Of a DNA stretch of 64,000 bases, positions 2,627 through 45,869 are shown piece by piece (position 1 is the stretch's first letter; each line of letters starts with the position of its first letter). The DNA is from Candidatus Krumholzibacteriia bacterium (GTDB lineage Bacteria > Krumholzibacteriota > Krumholzibacteriia > JAJRXK01), in contig JBGPIA010000001.1 of assembly GCA_041484665.1 (NCBI GenBank), forward strand, positions 640,001-704,000. Reading direction: 5' to 3'. Below the pieces are notes generated by a model. It was not told the DNA's origin and did no database searches. It saw only the letters and a program-made list of their open reading frames with translations. The translations under genes were made by a program, and so were the position numbers.

Positions 2627-3526
2627 ATGGGGATTGAACCAGTCATCATCGCCCATCGCGGCGCTTGTGCACGCGCGCCCGAGAACACCCTCGAGGCGTT
2701 CCGGCTCGCGGTCGAGCAGGACGGAGCGCAGGGGCTGGAGCTCGACGTGCAGCGCACGCGCGATGGCATGGTGGTGGTCCTGCACGACGAGACGCTCGAG
2801 CGCACGACCGACGGCGCTGGGCCGGTTGCCCAACTCGACTGGTCCGCGGCGCGCGCGCTCGATGCTGGCTATCGTTTCCAACTGCAGCCCCAGGCCAGCA
2901 GTGGGGAGTTCCCCTGGCGCAGGCGCGGTGTGCGCATCCCGGCGCTGCGCGAGGTGCTCGAGCAGTTCCCGGCGATCTGGATTTCGATCGACCTCAAGCG
3001 CGGCGACCCGCGAACGGAGCGGGCGGTGGTGGCACTCGTGCGCGAGCTGAGCGCCCACGACCGCGTGGTGGTTGGAGCCGAGGCGCACGCGGCCGCGCTG
3101 CGCCTGCGCGCGCTCGCCCCCGAGCTCGCAAGCTTCTTTAGCCGCCACGAGGCGCAGCGCTTCTACCTCCGGCATCGGCTGCGCTGGTGGCGTGGGTACC
3201 GGGCGCCCGCGCGCTCGCTGCAGATTCCGGCGCGTTTCCGCGGGCTCGATCTGGGGGCGATCCGGTTGATCGCGGACGCCCACCGCCTCGCGGTGGCCGT
3301 ACGCTACTGGACGGTGAACGACGAAGGCGAGATGGCGCGGTTGCTGGCCCTGGGGGCCGACGGGATCATCACCGACGACCCCGCCCGGCTGCGGGCGGTG
3401 ATCGGCCGCATGCAGCGCAGAGCGCCGCCCAAAGTGGCAGGCGGGACGCCGCCCGCGGCATCCGGGCGGGATTCGATGGCGGGGCTGGGTCCGGTGACGC
3501 AGCAGAGCCCGCCGGCGGATGCTTAG
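2627..3526 (+). CDS. Glycerophosphodiester phosphodiesterase (GDPD)
   Basis: IIAHRG..PENTLEAF, GLELDVQRTRDG.VVVLHDETLERTT, WTVND, GADGIITDDP; GGAGG RBS. Confidence 0.95.
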   Translation: MGIEPVIIAHRGACARAPENTLEAFRLAVEQDGAQGLELDVQRTRDGMVVVLHDETLERTTDGAGPVAQLDWSAARALDAGYRFQLQPQASSGEFPWRRRGVRIPALREVLEQFPAIWISIDLKRGDPRTERAVVALVRELSAHDRVVVGAEAHAAALRLRALAPELASFFSRHEAQRFYLRHRLRWWRGYRAPARSLQIPARFRGLDLGAIRLIADAHRLAVAVRYWTVNDEGEMARLLALGADGIITDDPARLRAVIGRMQRRAPPKVAGGTPPAASGRDSMAGLGPVTQQSPPADA

Positions 3527-6330
3527 CGCACCACGACGAAACGGCCGATCACGCGGTCGAAGGCCGTGTCGTTCGACTCCACGGCGAAGAGATAGATGCC
3601 GCTGGTGATCTCCCGCCCACCGCCCGAGATCAGGTTCCAGGAGAGCGAGCCGTTGCCGGCCGTTCCGTCGTGCCACAGCTCGGCCACGAGGTCGCCGGAC
3701 AGGGTGAAGATGCGCACGCGGTTGCGCGCGAGCGGGAGGTTGCGGAACTCGATGCGCACGCCCGTGGGATCGCCCGGCGCTGGGTGGACCTGGTAGAACT
3801 CGGCGAGCGCCTCGCGCGTGGCGGGGTTGGGAACGACGTAGACGTTGGAACCGTGGCGGGCGCGGTCCTGCGCCGACTGCGCTTGCGAGCGGGGAATCGC
3901 GAAGTGGAAGTTCCCCTGGGGATCGCCGGCGAGACCCGGACCGAGCGGCTGCGCGCCGGACTGCGGGTCCAGCTCGAAGTCCGTGCCCGTGACCGAGTAG
4001 AAGTACCAGCGTCCGTCGTGCACCTCGCGGTCCACGTACTCGAGGAACCCGCCCCCCTTCTTGTGGACGAACAACGTGTCGAGCTGGTCGTAACAGCACT
4101 CCCAATCCTGCAGGGCGGCGTAGCGCTCGCCCAGCGGCGTCAGCGTGCCCAGCTCGTCGCGGTAGCGGATGTGGTGCCCGGCCGGCAGGGCCGGGTTCTC
4201 CGCGACGATGCGGTCCAGCAGGACGTTGAGATCGGCGAAGCGCGCCGCCTCCGGCGACCCTTCGCGCAGAACGCGCGGCGTGTAGCGGATGGCCTCCAGC
4301 CCGGTATTGGGTCCCAGCGGCAGCTTGTAGACCTGCGTTTCTCCGCTGGAAAGCTGCCGCCGGAAGAGGAAGGAGTCCACCACATCGAACCCCGCGATCA
4401 GCCGCCACTGACGCGACGCCGGGCCGTTGGCGATCGACGACCCCACGGGCCGCGTCCAGTTGTCCGCGCGCCAGACCTGATATCCCTCGAAGTCCACCAG
4501 GCCCCGGCGCGGGTCCTTGCGCGACTCGTCAGCATCGTCCCAGTACACGTGCACCCGGTCGTGGGTCTCCCACAGCCGCAGCCCCGGCGCGAGAGGCGCG
4601 ACGTTGGTGAGCCACGGCACGTGGAACTCGCGGCCCCCGACGCCCGTGCAGCCGGCGAGCGAGTCCTCGGGGGCCCCCATGCCGTCCTGCCAACACTCCT
4701 GCGCCCCCCGCAACTGCTGCAACGCACAGTCGTTGTCGATGTAGACGCAGCCGCGCGCGTCAAGATCCTCCGCGGTCACCAACTGGGGCAAGATGGGCGG
4801 GCTCACGAGGCTGTCGCCGCAGTCCCGGTCCAAACTGAAGATCGGGTTGAGCGGGCCAGGCGGGCCCAGGTCGGACATGCAGACCTTTGTCTCACGCCCC
4901 ATGAGGCCCGTCGACGGGTCGTTGTCGCGGTCAAACCAGGCACCGTAGAACGTGAGGGCGGCCTCGGCCGCGTTGCGTTGGAGTCCGTCCAGCCCCGCGC
5001 CCACCACGATGGCAGCCTGCACGTGGATCTCGGTGCCCGGCCGCAGCGGCGTGAATGGGCCGGTCGAGATCAGGAAGGCGTAATCGGCAGCCTGGCTGGG
5101 ATCGGTCGGGTACCGGTCGATCTGGTCGTTGGACAGGAAATAGTAGCGTTCATAGTCGCCGTAGTCCGCGCTCCAGTCGAACGGAGACCTTATTGGGAAG
5201 AGCTGAAAGCTGCGCACCCGCGCCGTGCGCGGCGCGCGCTCGCCCGAGGGGTCGGTGTTGTGCCCCAGGAACATGACGCCGATGTATCCCCCGGCGCGTC
5301 CGCTGTCGCCGTCGGCGTCGTACATATAGCCCATCGAGAGCGGCACCCAGCTTCCGTCCGGCGCGCGCACGCGCCCCTGCCAGAAGCCCGGCAGATCGTC
5401 GTCGCTGATGTTCGCGCGGGAGCGTGGGCCGATGTCGCAGTCGGAGAAAAGGCCAACGTAGACGCCCTGCAGGATCTCGGTACCGACGTTGCGGATCGTG
5501 AACTCGAAGCCGACGAAATCGTCGGCGTCGTCGTTCTCCCACTGGTAGCTGTCCTGGACGACCTGCAGGCCGAGCGGCTCGTGGTCGGGACGGAGCTGGC
5601 GGAGCGCTGGCCAGTCGTCGCGCATCTCGCAGCGGAAGTGCTGGTGGCTGATGGCGGCGTAGTCCTCATCGATACGGCCATCGAGATCGTCATCGAGCCC
5701 GTTCCTGGGATCCTCGTTCACGCGGCCGTCGCCGTCGTCGTCCTCGCCGGGCTCCGGGTAGCGCAGCCCGTTGGGCTCGCCCTCACGCATGCGGTAGATC
5801 GTGTCCAGGGGATCGTCGGGGTTGGAGATCAGCTCCGTGGCGTACTGGCCGGTCGTGACGTACGGAAGGCCGTTCTTCAGCGCCCCAACCCACAGCCCGG
5901 CCGCCCACAGGTAGTCCACGCCGCTGCCCGCCGGCCACATGGCCGAGGGCGCGTTCGAATAGGAAGCGTGTAACGTGGGTCGGGAGCCGATCAGCCCCCA
6001 GTTCGTGATGTTGAGCTGCAGCTCGCCGACGTTGTGCACGAAGGAGCCGTCGATGATTTGGATGCCGCGTTCGTCGGCGGGTTGGACATCCGCTTTCCCG
6101 CGAAGATCCCAGGCCGCGTGGACCGCCGCGGCCGGAGCCAGGCCGATCAGGGCGCTCAGGGCCCAAAGAGCCCAGCCGGCCCAGGCTGAGATGACGGGAA
6201 AGCGCGCGGGAACGCGGGGGCGTTGATGGAGCGAGGCGCGACTGGCATAGAGCTGCGCATCACACGGCGCTGGACGCAGCGGACCCGTCTCCACCGACCG
6301 CAGCGGGTCACCGGGGGAACGCGGCAGCAC
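3523..6330 (-). CDS. Large secreted protein with acidic Ca-binding-like DxDxDG repeats and C-terminal FlgD-Ig/T9SS-like domain; true start uncertain (probably downstream of 6330)
   Basis: Hydrophobic signal-like segment (WALWALSALIGLAPAAAVHA), HNVGELQLNITNWG, DDDGDGRVNED/DDDLDGRIDED, C-terminal VYVVPNP..IFTLSGDLV..SWNL..SGIYLF..GRFVVVR. Confidence 0.85.
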   Translation of the reverse strand: MLPRSPGDPLRSVETGPLRPAPCDAQLYASRASLHQRPRVPARFPVISAWAGWALWALSALIGLAPAAAVHAAWDLRGKADVQPADERGIQIIDGSFVHNVGELQLNITNWGLIGSRPTLHASYSNAPSAMWPAGSGVDYLWAAGLWVGALKNGLPYVTTGQYATELISNPDDPLDTIYRMREGEPNGLRYPEPGEDDDGDGRVNEDPRNGLDDDLDGRIDEDYAAISHQHFRCEMRDDWPALRQLRPDHEPLGLQVVQDSYQWENDDADDFVGFEFTIRNVGTEILQGVYVGLFSDCDIGPRSRANISDDDLPGFWQGRVRAPDGSWVPLSMGYMYDADGDSGRAGGYIGVMFLGHNTDPSGERAPRTARVRSFQLFPIRSPFDWSADYGDYERYYFLSNDQIDRYPTDPSQAADYAFLISTGPFTPLRPGTEIHVQAAIVVGAGLDGLQRNAAEAALTFYGAWFDRDNDPSTGLMGRETKVCMSDLGPPGPLNPIFSLDRDCGDSLVSPPILPQLVTAEDLDARGCVYIDNDCALQQLRGAQECWQDGMGAPEDSLAGCTGVGGREFHVPWLTNVAPLAPGLRLWETHDRVHVYWDDADESRKDPRRGLVDFEGYQVWRADNWTRPVGSSIANGPASRQWRLIAGFDVVDSFLFRRQLSSGETQVYKLPLGPNTGLEAIRYTPRVLREGSPEAARFADLNVLLDRIVAENPALPAGHHIRYRDELGTLTPLGERYAALQDWECCYDQLDTLFVHKKGGGFLEYVDREVHDGRWYFYSVTGTDFELDPQSGAQPLGPGLAGDPQGNFHFAIPRSQAQSAQDRARHGSNVYVVPNPATREALAEFYQVHPAPGDPTGVRIEFRNLPLARNRVRIFTLSGDLVAELWHDGTAGNGSLSWNLISGGGREITSGIYLFAVESNDTAFDRVIGRFVVVR

Positions 6331-10737: not shown

Positions 10738-10901
10738 GTCCGTCACGCCCGCCGAACTCCTGGCACTCACGCCGCTTCTGCCGATCACGGACGCAAACAT
10801 GGCAGTTGAGCCACACCGATACAAGGGGTCTCGGGCCGTATCCCCGGGGCGCCCGCGCGCAGGACGGGCTAGCTGCAACCGCATGTGATAGAGTCGATTG
10901 C

Positions 10902-13865
10902 ATGGCACAGCGCTCTGCGGCCTGCCTGGTCGCCCTCTCCTCCCTGCTGAGGGCAGCCGCCGCACCCCATGACACGCGCACTCGCTTCGAGGCCGCAATC
11001 TCCGCGGCCGACCAGACCTATGCCACCACCACCGGAGACACGAAGCGCTCGATCACCCTGCTGGACTCGCTGGTCGCCGACGCGCGCAGCGGGGGCGACT
11101 CCGCCCTCGTACTGCTGGCCGTCTCGGCACGCGGCCGGCAACTGGCCGGCGTCGGCGAGGCGGCGCGCGCCGAAACCGACCTGCGCGCCGCGCTGCGATT
11201 GTCCAGCGCGGCGCGCGATACCCTGCTGCAGTGCAAGGCGCTGCGCTGGCTGGGGTTGGCCATCGCCACGCAGTCGCGCATCGCCGAGTCCGCCTCCTAT
11301 TACACCGAGCTGTTGCGCCTGTCGCTCGCGCGCAAGGACCGACTCTACGAAGGCTACGGCTATTTCGGCCTCGCATACGTCGATCTGTGCGGCGGCAACA
11401 CCGAGGCGGCGCGCCGCGGCTACGAGCGTGCGATCGCCATTTTCCGCGAGCTGGGCCGCACCCGCGACGAGCTCTACGTGCTGGTGGGGATGGGCAGGCT
11501 GCTCGGGGAGGTCGGAGACCTGGAGGCCGCCCGGCGGTGTTTTCTCACCATCGTCGAGCGTGGCCGGCAGGTGGGGGCGCTCCAACCGCAGGTCGAGGCC
11601 CTGAACAATCTGGCCCTGCTCGAGCAGACCATCGGCGACCCCGGCCTCGCCCTGCAGCATTTTCGCGAAGCCTACGGGCTGTCCCGCGCGACGTCGAACA
11701 CCGATGACATGATCATGGCCCGGATCAATATCACAAGTGCCCTGACCCAGCTCGGCCACTTCGACGCCGCCGTTGCGGTGCTGGACTCCGCACTGCAGGT
11801 CTGCCGCGACCAGCACTACGTGGAGAAGGAGGCGTGGGTCCTCGACTACTTTGCAGACTTGAGGCGGCAACAAGGCCGGCCGAGGGAAGCGGAAGGGCTC
11901 TACCGCGCCGCGCTGGCGCTGGGCGGCGCGGTCCCGCCGCCTGTACAAGAGACAACTGTGCTGGGACTGGTGGAGAGCATGGGCGACTCCGTGGCTGCGC
12001 TGGCGACGCTGCGGCAGCACGCGGCCCGGCTGCGCCCGTTTCTCGCTTCGGGCAGAGCCGACCTCTTCGAATGCGAAGAGGGCATCCTGCTCCAGCGTCT
12101 GCGGCGGCACGCGCAAGCCCTGCGTCTGCTGCTGGCGGCGGATCGCGTGGCGCGGCGCACTGGCGCCATCACTGACCGTCTGCGGCCGCTCGTGCACGCG
12201 GCAGAGTGCTGGCGCGCTCTGGGACGACCCGACAGCGCGCTGATCGCGCTGCGGGGCGCCGAGCAGGTGTGGGAGACGCAGCGCGGGCTGCCCCGCGATC
12301 CACAATGGCGCGAGCTGCGCGGAACGCTGGCGCGGCAGTTCTACGGAAGCATGGCCGAGCTGCTGCTGGCCTACCCCCCTGAGCTGCCGCCCCAGGCGCG
12401 CACGCGGCGGGCGTTCGACGCGCTGCAGAAGTTCAAGGCACGCTCCCTGCTCGAGCGCATGACCGGCCCTGGCCTGGCCGCGGGCCACGTTCCGTTACCC
12501 GAGCAGCTGTCGATCCGCACCCTGGCACAAGTCCAGGACGCGGTGCTCGGCGACGGCGAGCTTCTCCTCGATTTCTTCGTCTCCACGGACGCCTCGTTCC
12601 TGTTTGCCGTGACGCGCAGCGAGTGCCGCGCGATCCGGCTGGTCGATGGGCCCGCGCTGGAGACCGCCGTCGCGCTCGCGCGCGACCTGTGGGCGACCGC
12701 GCCGCCGGAGCGCGCGCCCGCCGAGCAGGAGCCGCTCCGGCAAGCCGGGGTCGCGCTCGCGCGCATGCTGCTGGGCGAGGTGAGCGATCTCGTGCGCGCC
12801 AGCCGGCGCGTGATCGTCGCGCCCGATGGTCCGCTCAACCTCGTCGCCTTCGGCGCGCTGCCGGCGCCACGGATGGGGTCCAGCGGATCCGCGTCCGCCA
12901 CCAGATCCGCGGCCCTGGAGGTGGCCAGCCCGGTTTCCCTGCTGCGTGACCGCGAGCTCTGGAGCGTTCCCTCGGCGACCGTGCTCGCGCAGCTGCGGGC
13001 CCGACCAATGGGCGCGGCCGGTGACGTGCACGGACACAACGCGCCCGCCGTGCCGCCGGCGCCGGATCGCATCTTTGCCTGCGCACTCGGCGCGACCGCC
13101 GCCGGCCGCGCGCTACCCGGCGCGGTCGGAGAGGTCCGCTGGCTCGCGCGCCGCTATCGCGGAGTGGATCTCGCCCTGGACGATTTTAGCCGAGGCGGGC
13201 AGGCGCTCGTCGAGGCGCTGCCGGGGCACCGGGTCGTGCATCTGGCGACGCACACCGTGGTCGATGATCAGCGCCCCTGGAACTCCGGGCTGTTCCTCGG
13301 TTCGACCCGTGGCGGCGCCGTGGACGCCTACCTGCGCGCCAGCGAGATCGCCGAGCTGAGGCTTTCGGCCGATCTCTGCGTGCTGTCCGGCTGCGAGTCG
13401 GCGGGCGGCCGCGTACTGTCGGGCGAGGGTGTGCAGGGGCTCTGCGGCGCCTTCCTCAGCGCTGGGGTCCCGGCCGTGCTCGCGACGCTGTGGCCGGTCG
13501 ATGACCGCTCGACGGCGCGCATCGTGCGCGAGTTCTATTGCGCACTTGGCCGCGGCGGCAGCGCCGCCGAGGCGCTGCGCCGCGCGCAGCTCACCGTGGC
13601 CACGGACCCGCGCACGAGCCATCCGTTCTTCTGGGCGGGGTTCGTCCTGACCGGCGACGGCATGGCGCACGTGCGGCTGGCGCGCCGAGTCCCGCCCGCG
13701 GCCCCGGCTTGCGTGGCCGGCGCAGCCCTGGTGGCGATCGTGGCGCTGGCCCGTGCCCGACGTCGACGTCGTGCCCGGCGCAACGCGCGCGACCGGGTGT
13801 TGGCGTCCGCGCCGCTTCGTCGCGCCACCCTGTCCGACGCCGGCGCCACCGAGATCCGTCCGTGA
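10902..13865 (+). CDS. TPR-CHAT (caspase-like, clan CD) protease with C-terminal TM anchor and Arg-rich tail
   Basis: TPR helices (ALNNLALLEQTIGD..ALQHFREA); VIVAPDGPL; catalytic dyad VVHLATH and VLSGCES; TLWPVDD, HPFFWAGFVLTG; C-terminal ACVAGAALVAIVALARARRRRR. Confidence 0.93.
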   Translation: MAQRSAACLVALSSLLRAAAAPHDTRTRFEAAISAADQTYATTTGDTKRSITLLDSLVADARSGGDSALVLLAVSARGRQLAGVGEAARAETDLRAALRLSSAARDTLLQCKALRWLGLAIATQSRIAESASYYTELLRLSLARKDRLYEGYGYFGLAYVDLCGGNTEAARRGYERAIAIFRELGRTRDELYVLVGMGRLLGEVGDLEAARRCFLTIVERGRQVGALQPQVEALNNLALLEQTIGDPGLALQHFREAYGLSRATSNTDDMIMARINITSALTQLGHFDAAVAVLDSALQVCRDQHYVEKEAWVLDYFADLRRQQGRPREAEGLYRAALALGGAVPPPVQETTVLGLVESMGDSVAALATLRQHAARLRPFLASGRADLFECEEGILLQRLRRHAQALRLLLAADRVARRTGAITDRLRPLVHAAECWRALGRPDSALIALRGAEQVWETQRGLPRDPQWRELRGTLARQFYGSMAELLLAYPPELPPQARTRRAFDALQKFKARSLLERMTGPGLAAGHVPLPEQLSIRTLAQVQDAVLGDGELLLDFFVSTDASFLFAVTRSECRAIRLVDGPALETAVALARDLWATAPPERAPAEQEPLRQAGVALARMLLGEVSDLVRASRRVIVAPDGPLNLVAFGALPAPRMGSSGSASATRSAALEVASPVSLLRDRELWSVPSATVLAQLRARPMGAAGDVHGHNAPAVPPAPDRIFACALGATAAGRALPGAVGEVRWLARRYRGVDLALDDFSRGGQALVEALPGHRVVHLATHTVVDDQRPWNSGLFLGSTRGGAVDAYLRASEIAELRLSADLCVLSGCESAGGRVLSGEGVQGLCGAFLSAGVPAVLATLWPVDDRSTARIVREFYCALGRGGSAAEALRRAQLTVATDPRTSHPFFWAGFVLTGDGMAHVRLARRVPPAAPACVAGAALVAIVALARARRRRRARRNARDRVLASAPLRRATLSDAGATEIRP

Positions 13866-13889
13866 CGAATCCGGCGATGAGGTCTCTCT
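13861..13889 (+). promoter_or_regulatory. Putative ECF promoter (GTGA-N16-GTCTCTCT) of the sigma gene, likely leaderless
   Basis: cGTGA cgaatccggcgatgag GTCTC tct; ATG lies 7 nt after GTCTC and there is no obvious RBS between them. Confidence 0.65.
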
Positions 13890-13893
13890 GACC

Positions 13894-14505
13894 ATGGACG
13901 CGGACGACCGTGCCGGGGCCGTGTCGGGGCTGACCGACGACGAGCTGGTCCAGCTCGCCGTACGCGAGACCCAAGCCGGTGGTGGCGGACCGGCCGCCGG
14001 CGAGCTCTTGAGCCGCTACCAGCTGCGAGTCTATCGGTGGTGCCGCCGCTATGCGCGCGACCACGAGCGGGCGCTCGACCTCAGCCAGGACGTCCTGCTG
14101 CTCGCGTACCGCGCGCTGGGCTCCTTCGAAGGGAGGGCGCCGTTTTCGGCCTGGCTGTTCACCATTACGCGACGTCGCTGCATCCGGGCCATGCGGCCCG
14201 TGAGCATGCTGCGTTACGACGACGCCGAGCTGGAGCTGATCCCCGACGACCGCCCTGGAGCCGACCGTGCCCTGGAGGACGAGGATGAGCTGCAGCGCAT
14301 GATGGAGCTCGTGCGCAGTTGCCTCGACCCGGTAGAGCAGAAGGCGCTGATGATGCGCTGCATGGAGCGCATCCCGGTGGATGAGATCACGCAGCTTCTG
14401 GGAATCGCAGCGGCATCGGGCGCGCGCGGCGTCCTGCAGCAGGCACGTCGCAAGCTGCGCGCGGCATCGCACGAGGATGACGCTGGAGACGGGAGAACCC
14501 CATGA
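13894..14505 (+). CDS. ECF sigma-70 family RNA polymerase sigma factor
   Basis: TDDELV, LLSRYQLRVYRWC, ALDLSQDVLL, FEGRAPFSAWLFTITR (region 2); LDPVEQKAL..EITQLLG..ARRKLR (region 4). Confidence 0.93.
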   Translation: MDADDRAGAVSGLTDDELVQLAVRETQAGGGGPAAGELLSRYQLRVYRWCRRYARDHERALDLSQDVLLLAYRALGSFEGRAPFSAWLFTITRRRCIRAMRPVSMLRYDDAELELIPDDRPGADRALEDEDELQRMMELVRSCLDPVEQKALMMRCMERIPVDEITQLLGIAAASGARGVLQQARRKLRAASHEDDAGDGRTP

Positions 14506-15278
14506 GCGAACGATGCCTGACCGTCGAGGAATTGGCGGTGGCCCTGCAGCAGTCGGAGACGAGCCCAGGGCGCCGCCATCTCGCCGGGTGTCCGCGCTGC
14601 CAATCGGTCCTGATGTCCTACCGGGAGTTCCTCGAGCCCACCGCGACGCTCCCCGAGGGGGAGCTGCGGGAGGCCAACGCCAGGTTGCAGGAGCAGCTGG
14701 AGAAGCAGCTCGCTCTGGCCGGGCAGCCGGCGGGGCCGGCGGGGCGCTCGACAGCGGCACGACGCCCGCGTACGCACCGCGCGTGGCGCGACCGCCTCCC
14801 TGGCTGGCGCACGCTGCGCCCCGCGTGGACCGTGGCGCTCGGTGCGCTGGCCGTCGTGGCCGTGATCGCTGCGATCGAGCTCGCGCCCGACCGTTCGCGC
14901 CCGATCGTGTTGCGCGAGCAGGGAGAGCAGCGCGGAGTTCCCACGGGACTTCCGGCGCTGCTCCCAGTCGAGCCCGCGCCGGACGGAGGCTTGACGATTC
15001 GCTGGCAGCCGGTGTCCGGGGCAGATTCCTACGAGGTGCGGGTCTACTCCACGCAGCTGCAGGAGGTCGCACGCCTGGGCCCCGTGAGCGGGACCTCGTT
15101 CCTCTTGCGCCGCGCCGCGCTTCCCGCCGCGGCGGCGCCGGCCGGCGCGCCCGCGGGCACGTCGGCGGGCACGTCCGCCGCGGCGGCGCAGGACACCTTC
15201 CTGGTGCGCGTGGCCGCGCAGCGCGGCGGGGCGCAAATCGGCCTCTCCCACGTGACGAGTGTTCGACTGACGCGCTGA
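14502..15278 (+). CDS. Transmembrane anti-sigma factor (zf-HC2/ZAS N-terminus, TM, FN3/Ig-like outer domain)
   Basis: CLTVEEL..HLAGCPRC (HxxxCxxC); TM VALGALAVVAVIAAI; LTIRWQPVSGADSYEVRVY; ATGA overlap with the sigma stop. Confidence 0.88.
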   Translation: MSERCLTVEELAVALQQSETSPGRRHLAGCPRCQSVLMSYREFLEPTATLPEGELREANARLQEQLEKQLALAGQPAGPAGRSTAARRPRTHRAWRDRLPGWRTLRPAWTVALGALAVVAVIAAIELAPDRSRPIVLREQGEQRGVPTGLPALLPVEPAPDGGLTIRWQPVSGADSYEVRVYSTQLQEVARLGPVSGTSFLLRRAALPAAAAPAGAPAGTSAGTSAAAAQDTFLVRVAAQRGGAQIGLSHVTSVRLTR

Positions 15279-15389
15279 GCGGAACCCACCGTACGCTTCC
15301 CTCCACGCGCGGTCGCCTGTACGTGAGCCGCGATCGACGTGAACTCCCGTGCGCGTCGGCGTGCGCCGGGGTGCGCCCCATCGGCATGG

Positions 15390-15418
15390 TGTGATCCAGC
15401 GCCGACCGCTGTCTCTCT
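15390..15418 (+). promoter_or_regulatory. Putative ECF promoter upstream of fibre gene 1
   Basis: tGTGA tccagcgccgaccgct GTCTC tct (16-nt spacer). Confidence 0.65.
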
Positions 15419-15517
15419 TCGAGCAGAGCCGCCGATCCGCATGCTCCTCATCCCCACGCACGGTCCAGGAACGGCGTCACTCCCGGGCCTGCGACCGACC
15501 CCACAGGAGGGTCAATC

Positions 15518-17434
15518 ATGACTTGGCATTTCTCATCGTCTCCGGCCGCGCTGCGAGCTGTGCTCTCGGCGGTGGCCAGCTTGCTCCTCGCGCTCGATCC
15601 CGCCGGCATCGTTGCGGCCGGATCGCCGCCCAGCGCGGGGCCCGGCGCGCCGGCCCCCGGCAGTGCACGCATTGCCAGCAGCCCGCTCCCCAGGCTCGGG
15701 GTCGCGCCCAAGTCGGCCCCGCCCTCCGGCTTCACCTACCAGGGCCAGCTGCGCAACGGGCTCGGCGTGGTCAGTGGGCCGTGCGATCTCCAATTCTCGC
15801 TGTTCGATGCGCCGGCTGCGGGCGCTCAAGTTGGCACCACCCAGACCAGGCTCGGCGTCACCGTGGACAACGGGGTCTTGACCGTCCAGCTCGACTTCGG
15901 GGCCGGCGCGTTCCAAGGCGACGCGCGGTGGCTGGAAATCGCGGTGCGGTCTCCGTCGGGAGGCGGAAGCTACACCACGCTCACGCCGCGGCAGGCGGTG
16001 ACGGCTGCTCCACAGGCCCTGACGCTGCGCCCCGGCGCGCAGATTCGCACCGCCAGCGAGCCAATCGGGCTCACGGTGAGCGCGTCGGACGTCGCGTGGG
16101 TCGCCCCGGTCGGCGTGATGGCGACCGGCGGCACCAGCACGAATACGTTCCCGGGACAGCCTACCGGTGTGTTCGGTGAATCCGCCAACGGCACCGGGCT
16201 CCTGGGGTACAGCCAGAACGGGATCGCCATCGTGGGTCAATCCGATCTGAACGACGGCGTGCAGGGCATCAGCCAGGGCTCCAACGGGGTGTCCGGCTTC
16301 TCGGCAAAGGTCGGGGCGAGCGGCGTGTACGGCGAGAACAGCGCCGGTGGATACGGAGTCGCTGGACGCGCGTCCGGGAGCGGCATCGGCGTGTTCGGCG
16401 AAAACTTCGACTCCAACGGCTGGGCAGGGCGTTTCAACGGCAGGACGCTGATGAGTGGCGACCAGACTGTGCTCGGAAACCAGATCATCACATTCGACCA
16501 ATCAATTGCCGGTAGCCAGGACGTTGCCGGCGGCCAAACCGTAAGTGGCCCGCTGTCCGCGATGAGCGATGTCAGCGTAGGGGGCAACCAGTCGTTCGGC
16601 TCCGTGACGCGGCAGATGCTGAATCTGTGGGGGACCCAATACGGCGTCGGTGTCCAGAACGCCACCTTCTATTCCCGCAGCGGGGGCGCGTACGCCTGGT
16701 ACCAAGGGGGTACGCACAGCAACAGCCCCAATGACCCCGGACTGGGCGGGATCCCGCTCATGAACCTCAGTGCCAGCGGCAGGCTCAGCACGCTCAGCGG
16801 AATGACCGGTGGCACGCCGACCCCCGGCCAGAGCGGCGTGAGCGGCTCCAACACGGCGGCCTTCGACGCGTCCTTCGGTTCGGCGGGCGTGCTCGGCACG
16901 AGCACCCAAAATGTCGGCGTGATCGCCCAGAGCTCGAACTTCCGCCCCTTCATGGCGTTCGGCAGCAATCTGCTGGATCCAAAGTTCTACATCGAGAACA
17001 ACGGAAACGTGCGCGCCGACGGGACCTTCTCCTCACCGGCGGCCGACTTCGCCGAGATGATGCCGGCCGGTGAAGTCCTCGAGCCCGGCGACGTGCTGGC
17101 GATCGGAGCCGACGGCGCGCTCGTCCGCTCCCGCGCGCCATACCAGCGCAGCGTGGTCGGCGTGTACTCGACCAAGCCGGCGTTCCTCGGCGGATCGCAG
17201 GAAGGTGGCAGGACCGCGGGGCAGGTGCCCCTCGCGGTCGTCGGCATTGTGCCGGTGAAGGTCACGGCTTCCAATGGCCCGATCCGGCCGGGGGACCTGC
17301 TCGTGGCCTCCTCCAGCCCGGGGCGCGCCATGCGCGCCGATGACGCTCCATCCATCGGATCGGTGATCGGCAAGGCGCTACAGCGTCTGGACGACGGCGC
17401 CGGGACAATCCAGGTCGTCATCATGCTCCAGTAG
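15518..17434 (+). CDS. Secreted tail-fibre-like protein 1 with C-terminal Peptidase_G2-like intramolecular chaperone domain
   Basis: Signal-like N-terminus; FTYQGQL..QFSLFDA..LDFG..RWLEIAVR..LTPRQ domain; Gly-rich GVxGxS repeats; RQMLNLWGTQYG; C-terminal ADFAE..EPGDVL..GVYSTKP..VGIVPVKV..GDLLV..IGKAL; CAGGAGGG RBS. Confidence 0.85.
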   Translation: MTWHFSSSPAALRAVLSAVASLLLALDPAGIVAAGSPPSAGPGAPAPGSARIASSPLPRLGVAPKSAPPSGFTYQGQLRNGLGVVSGPCDLQFSLFDAPAAGAQVGTTQTRLGVTVDNGVLTVQLDFGAGAFQGDARWLEIAVRSPSGGGSYTTLTPRQAVTAAPQALTLRPGAQIRTASEPIGLTVSASDVAWVAPVGVMATGGTSTNTFPGQPTGVFGESANGTGLLGYSQNGIAIVGQSDLNDGVQGISQGSNGVSGFSAKVGASGVYGENSAGGYGVAGRASGSGIGVFGENFDSNGWAGRFNGRTLMSGDQTVLGNQIITFDQSIAGSQDVAGGQTVSGPLSAMSDVSVGGNQSFGSVTRQMLNLWGTQYGVGVQNATFYSRSGGAYAWYQGGTHSNSPNDPGLGGIPLMNLSASGRLSTLSGMTGGTPTPGQSGVSGSNTAAFDASFGSAGVLGTSTQNVGVIAQSSNFRPFMAFGSNLLDPKFYIENNGNVRADGTFSSPAADFAEMMPAGEVLEPGDVLAIGADGALVRSRAPYQRSVVGVYSTKPAFLGGSQEGGRTAGQVPLAVVGIVPVKVTASNGPIRPGDLLVASSSPGRAMRADDAPSIGSVIGKALQRLDDGAGTIQVVIMLQ

Positions 17435-17491
17435 GCGCTCCCGGCCGCCCGCCAGCGCGTGGCCGGCTTGGCGCGACGGGTCGTTCGGATT

Positions 17492-17520
17492 TGTGACGTG
17501 GCGTCGCTGGGCGTCTCCCT
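17492..17520 (+). promoter_or_regulatory. Putative ECF promoter upstream of fibre gene 2
   Basis: tGTGA cgtggcgtcgctgggc GTCTC cct (16-nt spacer). Confidence 0.65.
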
Positions 17521-17643
17521 TCCGTCAGCCGGGCAATCCGCTCGATCGGCGGCTCGATCCCCGCGGGCCGGGGGTCTCCCGCCTCTGGCCCGTCACCCTG
17601 GCGCCATCGTTGCGGCGCCTCGCGCCAACCAGGAGGGCTCAGC

Positions 17644-19596
17644 ATGATCCGTCCCACCCGACTCCATCCGGCCGCGCGCCTGCGGCCGAGTCCTTTCAGT
17701 CTCCGCTCGCTCGAGCGCGCGGCGGGCGTCGCGCTCGTCGCCCGTATCGCGCTCGTCGCGTCCGTCACGTTCGTCGCGGCTCTCGCGCTGGTTGCGAACA
17801 TCGCCTCCGCGGCGGGCCCCGCGCACAACGGCGGGCCACAGGGAAGCTCCGCGGGCGGCAGCCCGCGCATGGTCAGCGGCCCCATCCCCGCGGGCGCCGC
17901 GACGATCCAGAGCGCCCTGGGCACGGGCTTCACCTATCAGGGCCAGCTGCGCAATGGTCAGGGTGCCGTGAGCGGTCCGTGCGACTTCCAGTTCTCGCTG
18001 TTCGACGCGCTGACGGCCGGCACGCAGATCGGCTCGACGCAGACGAAAAGCGCTGTGACCGTGGAAAACGGTGTCTTCACCGTGCAGCTCGACTTCGGGA
18101 ACACTGCCTTCACCGGCGATGCGCGCTGGCTGCAGATCGCGCTCCGTTCGCCGGCGGGAGGCGGCGCCTACACCGCGCTCGCCCCTCGCCAGCCCGTCAC
18201 GTCCGCCCCCGAGGCGCTCACGCTGCGGCCCGGCGCGACGATCCAGACCGTTACCGAGCCCGTCGGCGCGACCGTCAGCGCCTCGAACATCGCATGGGCG
18301 AATCCAGTGGCTCTCCGCGCCATCGGCGGCACCGCGACGAACCAGCTGCCGGCCATGCCAACCGGTGTCTATGGCGAGTCCGCCACGGGCGTGGGCGTAT
18401 TCGGCAACAGCACGCAGAGCTACGGGGTGCTCGGCAACTCGGACGCGCAGACCGCCGTCCAGGGGAACAGCATCAACAGCAACGGCGTCGCCGGGATGAG
18501 CTCCAACCCCATTGCCAGCGGCGTGTATGGTGAAAACCTGGCGGGTGGGTTCGGCGTGGCCGGGCGTGCGTCGCAGTTCGGAACGGCCGTGCTGGGCGAT
18601 AACACCGGCGGCGGGCGAGCCGGCCAGTTCAATGGCACCGTCGACGTCAGCGGCGACCAGAGCATCGGCGGCAATCTCAGTTTCGGAGCCGCCAGGCGCC
18701 AGATGCTCAACCTCTGGGGAACGCAGTACGGCATCGGCGTGCAGGACCTCACGCAGTACTACCGGACCGACGGCGGGGCCGGCTTCGCCTGGCACCAGGG
18801 TGGCTCGCACAGCAACACGCAGAACGATCCCGGATCCGGCGGAAGGACGGTCATGACGCTCGACGCGAACGGGCAGCTCAACGTTCCGCTGGGCGGGCTG
18901 AACGCAACCGATGCCAGCGACTATGGCGTGCGCGGAGCTGGTGGCGTCGGCGGGGTATTCGGCTCCACGGCCAATCTCTCCGGAGCGGGAGTCTTCGGCA
19001 TCAACACCTCTGGGGGCGGGAGCTCGTCGGCGGGCGTCTTCGGGCAGGGCAACAACGCGCCCGGGGTGGTCGGCCAGAGCTTCACCTCGCGCCCGTTCGT
19101 CGGGTACGGATCGAATCTGAACGACCCGGTCTTCTACGTCGACAATGCGGGATCCGTACACGCCGACGGGACCTACACGTCGCCGGCCGCGGACTTCGCC
19201 GAGCTGCTCCCCGCCGACGATGGGTTGGAGCCAGGTGACGTGCTCGCGATCGGGGACGACGGCAGACTGCTCCAAAGTGTGCAGCCGTACCAGACCAGCG
19301 TCGTTGGTGTATACTCGGCCAAGCCCGCCTTCCTCGGCGGGAAGCGCGATGTTGCCCAGGGCGTGGGCGGTCCGCAGGCGGACCAAGTTCCGCTGGCGGT
19401 GATCGGAATCGTCCCGGTCAAGGTCACCTCCGCCAACGGACCCATCAAGCCTGGAGACCTGCTGGTGGCGTCGTCGACGCCCGGCCGCGCGATGCGCGCC
19501 GACGTCAACCCGCCCAATGGAACGGTCATCGGAAAGGCGCTCGGACGGCTGGACGACGGAGCCGGCACGATCCAGGTCGTCATCATGCTGCAATAG
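17644..19596 (+). CDS. Secreted tail-fibre-like protein 2 (paralog of 15518..17434)
   Basis: Same architecture, same C-terminal RLDDGAGTIQVVIMLQ, same CAGGAGGG RBS. Confidence 0.85.
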   Translation: MIRPTRLHPAARLRPSPFSLRSLERAAGVALVARIALVASVTFVAALALVANIASAAGPAHNGGPQGSSAGGSPRMVSGPIPAGAATIQSALGTGFTYQGQLRNGQGAVSGPCDFQFSLFDALTAGTQIGSTQTKSAVTVENGVFTVQLDFGNTAFTGDARWLQIALRSPAGGGAYTALAPRQPVTSAPEALTLRPGATIQTVTEPVGATVSASNIAWANPVALRAIGGTATNQLPAMPTGVYGESATGVGVFGNSTQSYGVLGNSDAQTAVQGNSINSNGVAGMSSNPIASGVYGENLAGGFGVAGRASQFGTAVLGDNTGGGRAGQFNGTVDVSGDQSIGGNLSFGAARRQMLNLWGTQYGIGVQDLTQYYRTDGGAGFAWHQGGSHSNTQNDPGSGGRTVMTLDANGQLNVPLGGLNATDASDYGVRGAGGVGGVFGSTANLSGAGVFGINTSGGGSSSAGVFGQGNNAPGVVGQSFTSRPFVGYGSNLNDPVFYVDNAGSVHADGTYTSPAADFAELLPADDGLEPGDVLAIGDDGRLLQSVQPYQTSVVGVYSAKPAFLGGKRDVAQGVGGPQADQVPLAVIGIVPVKVTSANGPIKPGDLLVASSTPGRAMRADVNPPNGTVIGKALGRLDDGAGTIQVVIMLQ

Positions 19597-19606
19597 GAGG
19601 ACCGCA

Positions 19607-20218
19607 ATGCGAACCACGAGACTCCAACGCAGGAGCCCCCGCCCGCCGCTCCTCGCGCTGGCGGGGGCGGCCACGGCGATCGCCCTCGCCACGGCCGCGC
19701 CGGCCTTCGCGCAAACCGGCGGCGGGTACGATCTCACCTGGAACACCATCGACGGCGGCGGAGCGACCTTCAGCACCGGCGGCGGCTTCACCTTGGGCGG
19801 CACGATCGGCCAGCCCGATGCGGGGCTGTTGACCGGCGGGTCGTTCACGCTGCGCGGCGGCTTCTGGGGCGGCGGTCCGGTCGCCACGGGCGTGCCCGAG
19901 CCGGGCGACCGGCCCGGGAACGACCAGCCCGCGCTCCCGCTGGTCCAGCGCCTCTACCCCAATGTCCCCAATCCATTCAACCCGCGGACGGCCATCGCGT
20001 TTGACCTCCCTCATCCCAGCTCGGTTCGGCTGGAGATCTTCAATCTGCGCGGCGAGCTGGTGCGCACGCTGGTGCGCGAGGACCGCGCCCCCGGTCATCA
20101 CACGGTGATCTGGGAGGGAAACGACGACGGCGGACGAGCGGTGGCCAGCGGCTCGTACATCCTTCGCCTATCCACCCAGGAGGGGGTCCACCGGGAGAAG
20201 GTCATCCTGGTCCGTTGA
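19607..20218 (+). CDS. Small secreted protein: Gly-rich beta domain plus C-terminal FlgD-Ig/T9SS-like domain (putative fibre anchor)
   Basis: Signal peptide ending AFA|Q; GGGYDLTWNTIDGGG..GGGFTLGGTIGQPDAG..LRGGFW; NVPNPFNPRTAIAFDL..GELVRTL..WEG.D..VASGSY; AGGAGG RBS. Confidence 0.88.
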   Translation: MRTTRLQRRSPRPPLLALAGAATAIALATAAPAFAQTGGGYDLTWNTIDGGGATFSTGGGFTLGGTIGQPDAGLLTGGSFTLRGGFWGGGPVATGVPEPGDRPGNDQPALPLVQRLYPNVPNPFNPRTAIAFDLPHPSSVRLEIFNLRGELVRTLVREDRAPGHHTVIWEGNDDGGRAVASGSYILRLSTQEGVHREKVILVR

Positions 20219-31336: not shown

Positions 31337-31834
31337 ATGAAGTGCCCAACCTGTGGCCGCGAGATTGGCCGGACCAACCGCTTCTGCGCCGGGTGCGGCG
31401 CGCCCGTCTCGTCGCGCACGCTCACCGCCCGTCCAAACCACCGCATGTTGGCCGGCATTGGCGCGTTCCTGTTCCTTGCGGTCGGATTCGGGCTCGCGCA
31501 GCTCCGCGGGAGCTCTGCGGCACACCCGCCGTGGAACGGCGCGGCACCCGCGCGCTTGCCGGCCCAGGCGCGGCCGGTCGATTCGACGGTCTTGGCGATC
31601 GCCGAACAATTCGACTGTCCTTGCGGCACTTGCCGCGACCCCCTGGCGACGTGCGCATGTGAGCAGCAGAACGGCGCGGTCGAGGTCAAGCAGTTCATCG
31701 CCCACAAGCTCGCCGAGGGCCACCCGAAATCCCACATCGTTGAGCTGGTTAACCAGAAGTACGGCGGTCTGAAGGAGGCGGGGAGTCGCGCCGCGATTCC
31801 TGAGCGGATTCTTTGCATTGGGGGTAAGACATGA
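31337..31834 (+). CDS. Zinc-ribbon + TM + CcmH-like Cys-rich membrane protein
   Basis: CPTCG..FCAGCG; TM; CPCGTCRDPLATCAC..FIAHKLAEG..IVELVNQKYG; AGGAG RBS. Confidence 0.75.
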   Translation: MKCPTCGREIGRTNRFCAGCGAPVSSRTLTARPNHRMLAGIGAFLFLAVGFGLAQLRGSSAAHPPWNGAAPARLPAQARPVDSTVLAIAEQFDCPCGTCRDPLATCACEQQNGAVEVKQFIAHKLAEGHPKSHIVELVNQKYGGLKEAGSRAAIPERILCIGGKT

Positions 31835-34065
31835 AGAATGCGGTTGTTGGTGCCACTCTCGCGGCCGCCGTCGGTCGCCGCCCTCTCCGCCAAGTCGAGG
31901 GCCGGCCGTACCACGGTGTCCCTCGGGGAGCCCTCGTGCTTTCGCTGATGCTCTGGATGGCACTGCATGATACGCCGCGCGTGCTGGCTGCCAGCGCGTA
32001 CACCTTCCACGAGGACAGCGCTGCGCTCCACCTCGACGTCAAGTCCTTGGGCAGGTCGAATGCCTGGGCGGACCTGAACGGTGACCGCCGCGTGGACGTC
32101 GTCGCGGTGAGCCACGACCAGGGGGTCGCGGTGTTCTTCCAAACCGCAGATGGCTTGTTCCAGGACGTGACAAAGACGTGCGGTGCGCGCAGGCGGCTGC
32201 CCACCTACGGCGTCCTACTGGTCGATGCGGACAACGATGGCGACCGCGACATCTTCCTCGTCCACGGAGGCTTCGTTATTGATCCAGTCGTGAACGCATC
32301 CGCACGCTCCCTCTTCCTCAACGACGGAACAGGTCGATTCTCGGACGCCACGCTCGCGTCGGGCCTGGCAGGACCCGGGCGGGGCTTCGGGGCCGTCGCC
32401 GTGGACTACGACCGGGACGGCTGGCTCGACCTGTACTTTACCGGATATGACGCACCGAACGTACTCTTCCACAACAAAGGCGGCGGCGTCTTCCGCGACG
32501 TAACCGAGGACGCGGGCGCCGGCGCACAGGAGGGGCGCGAGGGGTACAGCACTTCCGTGGTGGTGCTGGATTACGACCGGGACGGCTGGGACGACCTGTT
32601 CGTCGCCCAGCGGGACTGGCCTGACGCGGAGCATCCACTCGGCAACAGCGTTCTCCTTCACAATCAAGGTGACGGCACGTTTGTCAACCGAGCGCCTGCT
32701 GCAGGTGTACAGGGATATGGCGGCGATTTCGTGGCCACCTGCGGCGACTACGACGGGGACGGCTGGCCGGACTTGTACGTGGCGACCTTTAACTGGGCGC
32801 CCAACGGCGTACCCGAGACCTCCGACAGCAACCGTCTCTATCTGAATCGACGCGACGGCACATTTCGCGACGCCACCGCCGAAGCTGGTGTGGCGTACAT
32901 CGGGGGAACGATGGGCCTGGCGTCTGGAGACTTCGACAATGACGGTTGGGTCGATCTCTATCTCGGCACTGGAGGCCCCTTTGCGCTGCAGCAGGAGGAG
33001 CAGATCCTGTTCCACAACGAGGGGAACGTCCACTTCGTGCCGGTGCAGGAGGAAGCCGGTGTGTCGCATCTGGGAAGGGGCCACGGGGCGGTTTTCGTGG
33101 ACTTCGACGAAGATGGGGACCTGGATCTCTTCCATTCCCTCGGCGGCTTCTATACAGCAGACCTCGAACGCAGCGCGCTCTACCGGAACAGTGGCGGGCC
33201 CGCCCATTGGATCGCCGTGGAACTGGAAAGCACGCACTGTAACCGAGACGGGGTGGGTGCAGTCGTGGAGGTCACCGCCCAGGACCGGGGCTGGCAGCAG
33301 GAGCTGAGGGCAGGCGATGGTTTTGGATCGATGCCGCCGCTGAGAGCATGGTTCGGACTGGGCGCGACGGCCGCGATCGAGCGGGTCACCGTTACGTGGC
33401 CGTGTGGGGAGAGGCAGAGCCAAGAGCGTCCCGGGGTGGACGGGGTGCTGCACATCCAGGAGCAGTCAGCGCGTCACTCGGGCACGGCTGCAACCGTGCT
33501 GGCCGTCGCAGCCGGCCGGCTGGAGGACGGCGCCGTCTGGCTGGCGTGGCACGACCCGTTCGGCGACGAGCGCGCTGGCGCGTACGCCTTCACCGTGGAG
33601 CGACTCGATGGAGCCGCGTTTCAGGTGCTCAGGGGCTCTCGTCACCCAGACGACGGCGGAAGCGATCACCGGCTCGTGGACGCGGACGCTCCCCGCGACC
33701 GCGGCGTATGCTACAGGGTTTTCACGGAGCCCGGCCTCGGCGTCGCTCTTATCGGCGAAGTCGCGGTTGCCGCATGGGACGCGCCCAGCGAGGCGCTGTC
33801 GTTGCGCGTGTATCCAAACCCCTTCCGGGAACATCTGCAGGTGCAGTACACGCTCCGTGCGCCCGCGTCGGTGACACTTGCAGTCTACTCCGTCGACGGA
33901 CGCCTGGTCCGCCATCTCGAGTGGGGCGAGGGCTCTGCGGGGCGTCACGTCGCGGCCTGGGATGGCACGGACATGGCTGGCGCTCGCGTGGCCGCCGGGG
34001 TGTATCGACTCTCGCTCTCCACCGGCCGGCGCGTAGTCACACGCCCGATCGTCAGGCATCGTTGA
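31831..34065 (+). CDS. CRTAC1-like FG-GAP/VCBS beta-propeller + ASPIC/UnbV + FlgD-Ig C-terminal domain
   Basis: Repeated DYDRDGWLDL/DFDNDGWVDL; NRDGVGAVVEV..WFGLG..VTWP; YPNPFR..DGRLVR..WDG.D..AGVY. Confidence 0.9.
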   Translation: MKNAVVGATLAAAVGRRPLRQVEGRPYHGVPRGALVLSLMLWMALHDTPRVLAASAYTFHEDSAALHLDVKSLGRSNAWADLNGDRRVDVVAVSHDQGVAVFFQTADGLFQDVTKTCGARRRLPTYGVLLVDADNDGDRDIFLVHGGFVIDPVVNASARSLFLNDGTGRFSDATLASGLAGPGRGFGAVAVDYDRDGWLDLYFTGYDAPNVLFHNKGGGVFRDVTEDAGAGAQEGREGYSTSVVVLDYDRDGWDDLFVAQRDWPDAEHPLGNSVLLHNQGDGTFVNRAPAAGVQGYGGDFVATCGDYDGDGWPDLYVATFNWAPNGVPETSDSNRLYLNRRDGTFRDATAEAGVAYIGGTMGLASGDFDNDGWVDLYLGTGGPFALQQEEQILFHNEGNVHFVPVQEEAGVSHLGRGHGAVFVDFDEDGDLDLFHSLGGFYTADLERSALYRNSGGPAHWIAVELESTHCNRDGVGAVVEVTAQDRGWQQELRAGDGFGSMPPLRAWFGLGATAAIERVTVTWPCGERQSQERPGVDGVLHIQEQSARHSGTAATVLAVAAGRLEDGAVWLAWHDPFGDERAGAYAFTVERLDGAAFQVLRGSRHPDDGGSDHRLVDADAPRDRGVCYRVFTEPGLGVALIGEVAVAAWDAPSEALSLRVYPNPFREHLQVQYTLRAPASVTLAVYSVDGRLVRHLEWGEGSAGRHVAAWDGTDMAGARVAAGVYRLSLSTGRRVVTRPIVRHR

Positions 34066-35543: not shown

Positions 35544-35680
35544 TGCTTCATATGCAGCAGCAGATTCTGGATCTGCTGCCTGCCAAGCAGTCGGGCAAGC
35601 GCCCCCGACCGTGCGCTCCGACCTATCTCGCTCCCCTATAACGAGTTCCACGCATTTCCCGGAGTCGGCCCTCAGGTTGC
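35544..35680 (+). promoter_or_regulatory. Putative sigma54 promoter with upstream palindrome for the cus-like operon (copy C)
   Basis: TGCTTCA-TA-TGCAGCA at 35544-35559; CGGCCCT-cagg-TTGC at 35666-35680 (GG-N10-GC). Confidence 0.6.
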
Positions 35681-45860: not shown

Positions 45861-45869
45861 GGCGCTCCC

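Follow-up and report, generated by a model that had tools for sequence, protein, structure and literature searches.

The described system closest to the locus presented here is the DdvA/DdvS pair of Myxococcus xanthus (PMC11506125, PMC6061681). It comprises a sigma factor of the extracytoplasmic function (ECF) class, an anti-sigma factor with a CHCC zinc domain and one transmembrane (TM) segment, and a periplasmic tetratricopeptide repeat (TPR) and CHAT protein part with a His-Cys dyad. A site-1 cut in the linker following the TM segment and a subsequent cut by RseP have been proposed, truncated forms of DdvA being RseP substrates, and an autoregulated promoter is repeated ahead of nearby targets (PMC11506125). 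Whether the periplasmic CHAT domain is the site-1 protease of the anti-sigma factor was left open in that study, in which autoproteolysis could not be triggered. In type III-E Craspase (Csx29/Csx30/CASP-sigma; PMC10028731, 10.1101/2022.08.17.504292, PMC9729208), a separately encoded TPR-CHAT protein, Csx29, binds the C-terminal domain of the anti-sigma factor Csx30 and cuts its linker, which changes sigma activity. Counterparts of the DdvA/DdvS features named above, the proteolytic steps as predictions, are seen in a six-gene locus at positions 10,902 to 20,218 of a 64,000-nucleotide stretch (hereafter the window) of the genome of Candidatus Krumholzibacteriia bacterium (GCA_041484665.1, contig JBGPIA010000001.1, positions 640,001 to 704,000), in which the TPR-CHAT protein is encoded separately, as in Craspase.

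The locus is read here, with moderate confidence, as a switch that works by regulated proteolysis and governs a local regulon encoding secreted proteins. Its conserved unit is the triad of CHAT, sigma and anti-sigma genes; two fiber genes and a small sixth gene form a recurrent but minor cargo. New here are the candidate cut site, the surface predicted for docking, the testing of the regulon on held-out loci and the anatomy of the fiber/adaptor pair. Since enzyme, substrate and reporter promoter are separate parts in this split version, as are the cut site and the docking surface predicted for them, the question raised by DdvA becomes directly testable. The locus would also represent a CHAT switch used outside clustered regularly interspaced short palindromic repeats (CRISPR) systems, for surface proteins.

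Conservation of the triad

Six open reading frames (ORFs), all on the + strand, were found in the source genome (5.45 Mb, 94% complete) as reported by the first-pass annotation of the window. The features of the triad are, in window coordinates:

10902..13865 (+), TPR-CHAT protease, 987 residues: weak signal peptide, TPR array, CHAT domain 615-919, C-terminal TM segment 934-950 and basic tail; putative type I membrane protein
12654..12767 (+), CHAT residues 585-622, where the anti-sigma FN3 domain is predicted to dock (complex model)
13251..13394 (+), catalytic dyad His784 and Cys831 (HLATHT ... LSGCES), from conservation and DdvA alignment
13862..13889 (+), promoter-like site 1, GTGAC-N15-GTCTCTCT, 4 nt 5' of the sigma ATG; the TGA within the site is the CHAT stop codon
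13894..14505 (+), ECF sigma factor, 203 residues (TIGR02937)
14502..15278 (+), anti-sigma factor, 258 residues: CHCC zinc domain (C5, H26, C30, C33), TM segment ~110-128, linker, FN3 domain 145-258
14904..14918 (+), IVLR/E motif with Arg138 (14913-14915), candidate site-1 cut (at the slash); family consensus V-L-R-G

The second gene scored 75 bits against TIGR02937 (cut-off 42.9), in agreement with its earlier assignment as an ECF sigma factor. Of 41 genomes, 21 encoded a close relative of this sigma factor; members of the anti-sigma family were present in 85 of the 151 genomes of the phylum (source genome included in both counts). A CHAT gene adjoined the sigma/anti-sigma genes at 18 of 20 loci selected by the sigma factor and at 38 of 40 selected by the anti-sigma factor (56/60 together). 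The order of the genes varied, with at least three arrangements: CHAT-sigma-anti-sigma, sigma-anti-sigma-CHAT and a divergent one. Gene starts in these other loci come from a simple in-house gene caller and are approximate. The source genome itself harbored two more intact triads of this type (contigs C36 and C46). It also had one degraded triad, an orphan CHAT gene and a sigma/anti-sigma fusion.

The gene usually found behind the triad encoded a large exported protein, with a FlgD domain and FG-GAP, beta-helix, CARDB, LVIVD or similar repeats. Fiber-linked triads accounted for 6 of the 88 other loci, plus one (L287) obtained by a targeted search, and no fiber operon stood beside other CHAT subfamilies (0/131 loci). 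Among 40 relatives, fiber matches lay on contigs other than those of the sigma matches, one single-locus case aside. The first-pass annotation had treated the six genes as one system; because the triad is conserved and the fibers occasional, the layout is not a fixed system, and a fixed six-gene system was rejected, with 0 fiber matches in 20 orthologous loci.

Promoter motif and regulon

The proposal that one promoter-like motif links the sigma gene and both fiber genes was borne out. GTGAY-N15-GTCTCYCT occurred three times in the window (13862, 15391, 17493) against 0.01 expected, the pattern having been read off these very sites. Seeding a genome-wide search with the two boxes of the sigma gene's own site (at most one mismatch) returned four sites in 5.45 Mb: the seed itself, one ahead of fiber 1, one ahead of fiber 2 and one intragenic. 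Each of the 21 orthologous sigma genes examined had, shortly ahead of its start, a two-box motif, TGTGA(T/C) followed after 15-18 nt by GTC(T/C). A position weight matrix (PWM) trained on these 21 foreign promoters scored 18.1 and 13.3 ahead of fibers 1 and 2, and less than 9 ahead of seven other fiber or gene-6-like genes of the genome located away from the triad.

Comparison across loci pointed in the same direction. A PWM score of at least 14, a cut-off chosen after the scores were seen, was reached ahead of 18 of the 29 genes that come first downstream of a triad, versus 6 of 295 other genes, mis-called sigma ORFs having been removed beforehand. At held-out loci (2 of 40 dropped at contig ends), the motif was present behind the triad in 18 of 38 cases (in 17 of the 38, wholly past the stop codon), versus 16 of 400 random windows. 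It also preceded the fiber operon at four of the seven other fiber-linked loci (L064, 24.9; L069, 19.0; L138, 17.4; L251, 14.6); because the fiber operon of L064 points towards the triad, its promoter cannot be read-through. The autoregulated promoter thus very probably drives a local regulon of secreted proteins, as judged by sequence comparison, and the sigma transcript starting from site 1 is probably leaderless.

The motif was found ahead of only 2 of 36 CHAT genes. A lone TGTGAT was located at window 10884-10889, 18 nt 5' of the CHAT start, with no matching second box. At two loci (L041:4525 and L042:11335), a strong motif stood ~300 bp ahead of a gene behind the triad encoding a cytoplasmic-looking protein of ~810 residues, which is not a secreted cargo. 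Between window positions 10500 and 20700 no sigma-70 promoter was found, and terminators were not in excess.

TPR-CHAT protein

The 987-residue protein matched the Pfam CHAT family (E 7e-53) in addition to TPRs. H784 and C831 aligned with H862 and C907 of DdvA, which among PDB entries matched the CHAT domain best (E 1e-4), and both residues were invariant in 108 of 108 homologues; the intact dyad, the C-terminal TM segment (hydrophobic stretch 934-950) and the basic tail noted in the first-pass annotation were thereby confirmed. An N-terminal hydrophobic stretch was present in 87 and a C-terminal TM segment with basic tail in 97 of the 108 homologues (Kyte-Doolittle), the signal peptide of the window's own copy being weak. 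Given these two hydrophobic ends, the enzyme is most likely oriented to the periplasm, the side on which the C-terminal domain of the anti-sigma factor is also predicted (a single TM segment in 132/133 anti-sigma factors, from hydrophobicity). Named homologues came from Eisenbacteria, Krumholzibacteriota and Latescibacterota. The Csx29 model NF041237 scored 10.1 bits (cut-off 300), which places the protein outside the Csx29 family.

The source genome contained 24 CHAT matches, about ten of which adjoined an ECF sigma factor and an anti-sigma factor of other types. Several of these other anti-sigma factors displayed an Arg-Gly or Arg-Ser pair some way past the TM segment (seen by eye and uncounted; no general rule is claimed). 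One CHAT set (C6:184127-188309) had no clear TM segment and may be cytoplasmic. Another CHAT gene of the same subfamily as that of the window (C16:89214-92183, L005), with an intact dyad and no adjoining sigma gene, might act in trans.

Anti-sigma factor and its conserved arginine

A word-indexed search found only 2 proteins of the anti-sigma family, which was assembled from a full HMMER profile search (133 rows). The first-pass annotation had described a zf-HC2 protein with an outer FN3-like domain. No Pfam match was obtained, but the zinc ligands were conserved (C5 126/133, H26 121/133, C30 132/133, C33 132/133) and the model of the outer domain folded as FN3 (best Z 10.0). Fold searches with this model were filled by FN3 domains and did not return Csx30, to which a likeness may therefore still exist.

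Only three columns of the family were invariant: F43, R138 and W168. R138 (133/133, a count somewhat inflated because the rows were found with a profile already containing this Arg) was preceded by Leu in 113 and followed by Gly in 92 of the 133 rows, giving the consensus V-L-R-G. It lies at a median of 12 residues past the TM segment, in a low-confidence linker of the model, and a pattern check on the fetched loci found the Arg in 78 of 79. Two Arg motifs past the TM segment had been put forward as cut sites; IVLRE holds the invariant Arg, while EQRG was ruled out by its lack of conservation (Arg at that column in 8/133).

Two further loci of the source genome are of note. At C15:73272-74738 (L003), a sigma factor is fused to an anti-sigma factor of this family with Trp instead of the Arg, with neither CHAT neighbor nor promoter motif. 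At C1:83347-85219 (L004), a degraded triad has lost its CHAT gene except for the final ~75 codons, on the opposite strand, and its anti-sigma factor retains an Arg (QVRA).

Predicted docking

A multimer model of the CHAT protein with the anti-sigma ectodomain, the check proposed in the first-pass annotation, supported an interaction. CHAT residues 56-922 modeled with anti-sigma residues 127-258 scored 0.70, 0.69 and 0.70, whereas the highest-scoring of three controls gave 0.02. The threshold applied to these scores is passed by 116 of 157 solved complexes and by 2 of 215 mismatched pairs, figures that apply only roughly with our own alignments. The runs shared at least 37% of contacts, with a predicted local distance difference test (pLDDT) score of at least 67 for the partner. 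The predicted interface set CHAT residues 585-622 against FN3 residues 182-188 and 232-253, and was centered on L186, the most contacted residue, conserved in 128 of 133 anti-sigma factors. Binding of CHAT to the FN3 domain is accordingly modeled as likely; that this CHAT also cuts the predicted site at Arg138 is favored by a narrow margin only, from conservation.

Fibers

The cargo of the triad in the window consists of:

15391..15418 (+), promoter-like site 2, intergenic, ahead of fiber 1
15518..17434 (+), fiber 1, 638 residues: signal peptide, FTYQG Ig-like domain, Gly-rich shaft, DFAE motif (D510), gp12-type chaperone
17493..17520 (+), promoter-like site 3, intergenic, ahead of fiber 2
17644..19596 (+), fiber 2, 650 residues: signal peptide, FTYQG Ig-like domain (~90-190), shaft, C-terminal chaperone 517-650
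19192..19593 (+), phi29-gp12-like C-terminal chaperone of fiber 2, beginning at D517 (DFAE)
19607..20218 (+), gene 6, 203 residues: signal peptide, ~57-residue fiber-linked domain (GGGYDLTW...GGFW, 19712-19882), FlgD-type sorting domain as in the type IX secretion system (T9SS); putative export adaptor

The two fibers, rightly called paralogs before, were 55% identical. Their homologues numbered at least 821; those listed had ~400-1100 residues, and 101 of the 120 listed shared both end domains, nearly all starting signal-peptide-like. Some family members ended in an S74 chaperone (PF13884) instead, which Pfam did not detect in fibers 1 and 2, and Pfam, NCBIfam and PHROGs together gave nothing useful for either fiber or for the anti-sigma factor. 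The monomer model of fiber 2 showed two confident domains and a low-confidence shaft. Its N-terminal domain was a generic Ig-like sandwich (best Z 7.2), while residues 517-648 matched residues 692-854 of phi29 gp12 (3GQH; Z 14.4, root mean square deviation 2.5, 114 residues aligned, 18% identity), and Foldseek ranked 3SUC first for the C-terminus. Capsid decoration proteins of the same fold ranked next (Z 13.0 and 11.3).

D517 was in register with gp12 residue 692, the first of the cleaved fragment, mature gp12 ending at residue 691 (PMC6542822). Within DFAE, D517 was conserved in 78 and E520 in 76 of 79 rows. Glu695 is catalytic in gp12. Because other proteins of the same fold score nearly as high, the fold alone is no proof of self-cleavage; the register and the motif argue for it. 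At E 0.01, none of 79 members matched Pfam Peptidase_G2 (PF11962). One atlas cluster, 17% of whose members carry PF11962, scored 0.88 and is a lead only, and a PDB sequence search with the fiber profile gave one chance match. Self-cleaving trimers formed through a gp12-type chaperone are, on fold and motif, highly probable. The tailspike trimerization fold thus upheld the phage-fiber likeness seen earlier, while the terms adhesin and anchor, also used then, name functions that we infer; adhesion is slightly favored as the role of the fibers.

Gene 6 and the sorting domain

Gene 6 matched FlgD_ig (E 3e-11), as previously stated, and TIGR04183 (27.6 bits, cut-off 23). The flagellar connotation of the name did not stand: the FlgD-type C-terminal domain is carried by ~210 proteins of the genome and is a generic sorting domain, which ruled out FlgD as a flagellar link. 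The 57-residue N-terminal domain of gene 6, for which the atlas holds no named family, adjoined a fiber gene in the first 7 of 7 cases and had one within 1.5 kb at 23 of 30 loci of this phylum. It was fused to the sorting domain within the same ORF in 27 of these 30. The other three (L265, L266, L286; two of them from a genome with 5% contamination) bore short tails with an LPLVLKN end, a DGFE-containing tail and a WPS...FYRL type, which we take to be sorting tags of other phyla, and suggest tag swapping. The sorting domain was absent from fiber hits (0/13).

SprA, PorU and PorV were above cut-offs in the source genome, so that a signal peptide plus a sorting domain qualify gene 6 as T9SS-type cargo. 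The gene 6 product is a putative adaptor lending the fibers an export signal, a role that its pairing with fiber genes makes fairly plausible. The pair suggests how trimeric fibers that lose their C-terminus could use a secretion system reading C-terminal signals.

This T9SS-like system lies outside Bacteroidota; PorU stands beside PorV, and 8 PorV-family matches were over the cut-off. No description of such a system in this lineage was found in the literature searched.

Proposed mechanism and alternative explanations

The CHCC-zinc anti-sigma factor would tether the sigma factor to the inner membrane, as domain type and gene order suggest. The separately encoded TPR-CHAT protein, in the same membrane and facing the periplasm, is predicted to dock on the FN3 domain via helices 585-622. 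Binding of a ligand to the TPRs would activate the His-Cys dyad, and the linker would be cut after Arg138, removing the FN3 shield. RseP, whose gene was above the cut-off in the source genome, would then cut the TM segment and release the sigma factor, a step seen for DdvA only. The sigma factor would transcribe its own operon and the adjoining secreted-protein gene from TGTGA(T/C)-N15-18-GTC(T/C) promoters, as the comparative evidence strongly indicates. Here the cargo would be two fibers, trimerizing via the gp12-type chaperone and self-cut at A/DFAE, and gene 6 would probably bind their FTYQG domain and supply the T9SS-type sorting domain that the fibers are without, as the gene pairing suggests. 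In its widest form, which is tentative, the triad would be a phylum-wide plug-in switch: a stand-alone periplasmic CHAT grips an FN3 handle, cuts the invariant Arg via a non-separase pocket and activates any adjoining secreted-protein gene bearing the promoter, here phage-derived self-cleaving fibers that, having no sorting signal, are exported with a small adaptor, the tail of which differs between lineages according to their own sorting tags.

Several observations weigh against a switch of this kind. On the regulatory side, only 19 of 28 CHAT-selected loci had such a sigma factor (the other nine were in several cases on short contigs), and fiber operons flanked 0 of 20 sigma-selected, 4 of 28 CHAT-selected and 2 of 40 anti-sigma-selected loci. 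The motif was lacking at three of the seven linked fiber operons (L139, L243, L287), the sites of the window's sigma gene (10.8) and of fiber 2 scored below the PWM cut-off of 14, and 318 genome sites reached at least 13, the matrix alone not being specific. Related genomes are also not independent samples in the counts across loci, L040 and L061 being the same contig. On the catalytic side, the invariance of Arg138 is partly circular, the profile having contained it. The residue following the catalytic His is T, A or V rather than Gly, and Arg138, H784 and C831 lie outside the confident contacts of the complex model (in which residues not named remain uncertain). In separase, an Asp at catalytic Cys+41 binds the P1-Arg (human C2029/D2070; PMC9729208, PMC10317155). 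An alignment with yeast and Chaetomium separase places A872 there in the window's CHAT, on sequence alone; the column held Ala in 65 and Val in 15 of the 108 homologues, and Asp was not among its five commonest residues. With this Asp replaced, recognition of Arg would require another acidic residue, for which the invariant D642, E744, E842 and D868 are candidates. For DdvA, too, CHAT activity of its own was not demonstrated (PMC11506125).

These catalytic points could be accommodated if CHAT were a non-cutting co-sensor or shield that binds the FN3 domain, protects the linker and, on a signal, admits another Arg-specific periplasmic protease at Arg138, with an unchanged regulon. RseB offers an analogy for such a role. 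Besides docking away from the active site and the missing separase Asp, this explanation draws on DdvA dyad mutants that were like wild type at rest, with no autoproteolysis seen (PMC11506125), and on three anti-sigma factors (L046, L242, L252) that retain the Arg with no CHAT in the 13-20 kb fetched. A CHAT encoded elsewhere could, however, act there in trans; in the C15 fusion, which has no CHAT, Trp takes the place of the Arg (one case), related CHATs do cut anti-sigma factors (PMC10028731), and a His and Cys invariant in all 108 homologues are hard to explain without catalysis, so that a non-cutting CHAT is judged unlikely. Somewhat less likely still is a switch working as described above in the service of defense, with TPRs sensing phage or predator attack and fibers acting as decoys, shields or weapons rather than adhesins. 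DdvA/DdvS and Csx29/Csx30 both control anti-phage loci (PMC11506125, PMC10028731) and the fibers are built like phage tailspikes, but PADLOC had no family for sigma factor, anti-sigma factor, fibers or gene 6 and gave CHAT only weak SAVED_CHAT and TPR matches; the cargo at other loci consists of surface proteins of the FG-GAP, beta-helix and CARDB kinds, and similar host-encoded fibers of Bdellovibrio are adhesins (PMC10769870).

That the fiber operon is a recent passenger beside the triad and uncontrolled by it, the shared motif being chance or a duplication relic, appears very improbable. Fibers are absent from 82 of the 88 other loci, the named fiber homologues are from Chloroflexota, and sites 2 and 3, ahead of tandem paralogues, may share one origin. 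Against this, the sigma gene's own site picks out both fiber sites among four genome-wide, the motif was kept while the spacers diverged, and it recurs at linked fiber operons of differing layout; third-codon-position G+C of the fiber region also equals that of its neighbors (0.85-0.88). The proteolytic switch with secreted cargo remains the preferred explanation.

Neighboring genes

Three further proteins with a FlgD-type tail are encoded in the window: an unannotated 935-residue protein (3523-6330, -), an FG-GAP/ASPIC protein (31831-34065, +) and a Kelch/galactose-oxidase-like protein (49817-51934, -). Two tandem resistance-nodulation-division (RND) efflux sets (OEP, HlyD/CusB and AcrB-type) likely form a metal-resistance region together with a P-type ATPase that has a heavy-metal-binding domain (35611-49049 and 54118-56574).

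Comparison with described systems

The first-pass annotation had pointed to type III-E CRISPR. Csx29 shares separate encoding with the CHAT described here, but Craspase is cytoplasmic and is without a membrane zinc anti-sigma factor; Cas7-11 together with target RNA activates it, and its cuts fall after Met or Leu. Cas7-11 was not among the annotated neighbors of the locus, no search aimed at it having been made. An ECF sigma factor near a TPR-CHAT gene also occurs in the ECF54 context (PMC7826278), which is Actinobacterial, with subtilase and carboxypeptidase-regulatory neighbors, a GTATCAG/CTCC promoter and, in the text available, no named anti-sigma factor; the locus described here has other neighbors, another motif and an anti-sigma factor. 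In the classification text searched, CHAT was listed under ECF54 only. The literature also yielded the type III-B SAVED-CHAT.

The nearest described cellular proteins to the fibers are the Bdellovibrio MAT adhesins (PMC10769870), host-encoded mosaic trimers bearing signal peptides, in which the N-terminal beta domain is constant, the shaft varies and the self-cleaving chaperone is of phage type. That chaperone is of the S74 type, whereas the two fibers here have the gp12 (G2-type) fold; in the available text the surface anchor of the MAT fibers is not identified, and no paired sorting-domain adaptor is described. The phi29 gp12 chaperone (PDB 3GQH/3SUC; PMC6542822) has the fold and the start of the cleaved fragment in common with them, but is part of a virion, whereas the fibers are chromosomal exported proteins with 18% identity to it and no Pfam Peptidase_G2 match. 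The split periplasmic CHAT/FN3 anti-sigma triad and these fibers were undescribed in the literature searched, the coverage of which was partial, so that a description may have been missed.

DdvA/DdvS is nearer to this locus than Craspase, having the same parts in fused form (PMC11506125). There, CHAT is joined to the anti-sigma factor, the promoter is GTAA-n16-CGT and the targets are CRISPR loci and those of the antiphage signaling system based on cyclic oligonucleotides (CBASS). Here, CHAT is encoded by a separate gene and has a signal peptide and a C-terminal anchor of its own, the anti-sigma factor ends in FN3 and bears an invariant Arg, the promoter is TGTGAY...GTCY and the targets are secreted proteins. 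The switch would work like DdvA/DdvS in split form and is not a member of that system as defined, being unfused and having another promoter and other targets.

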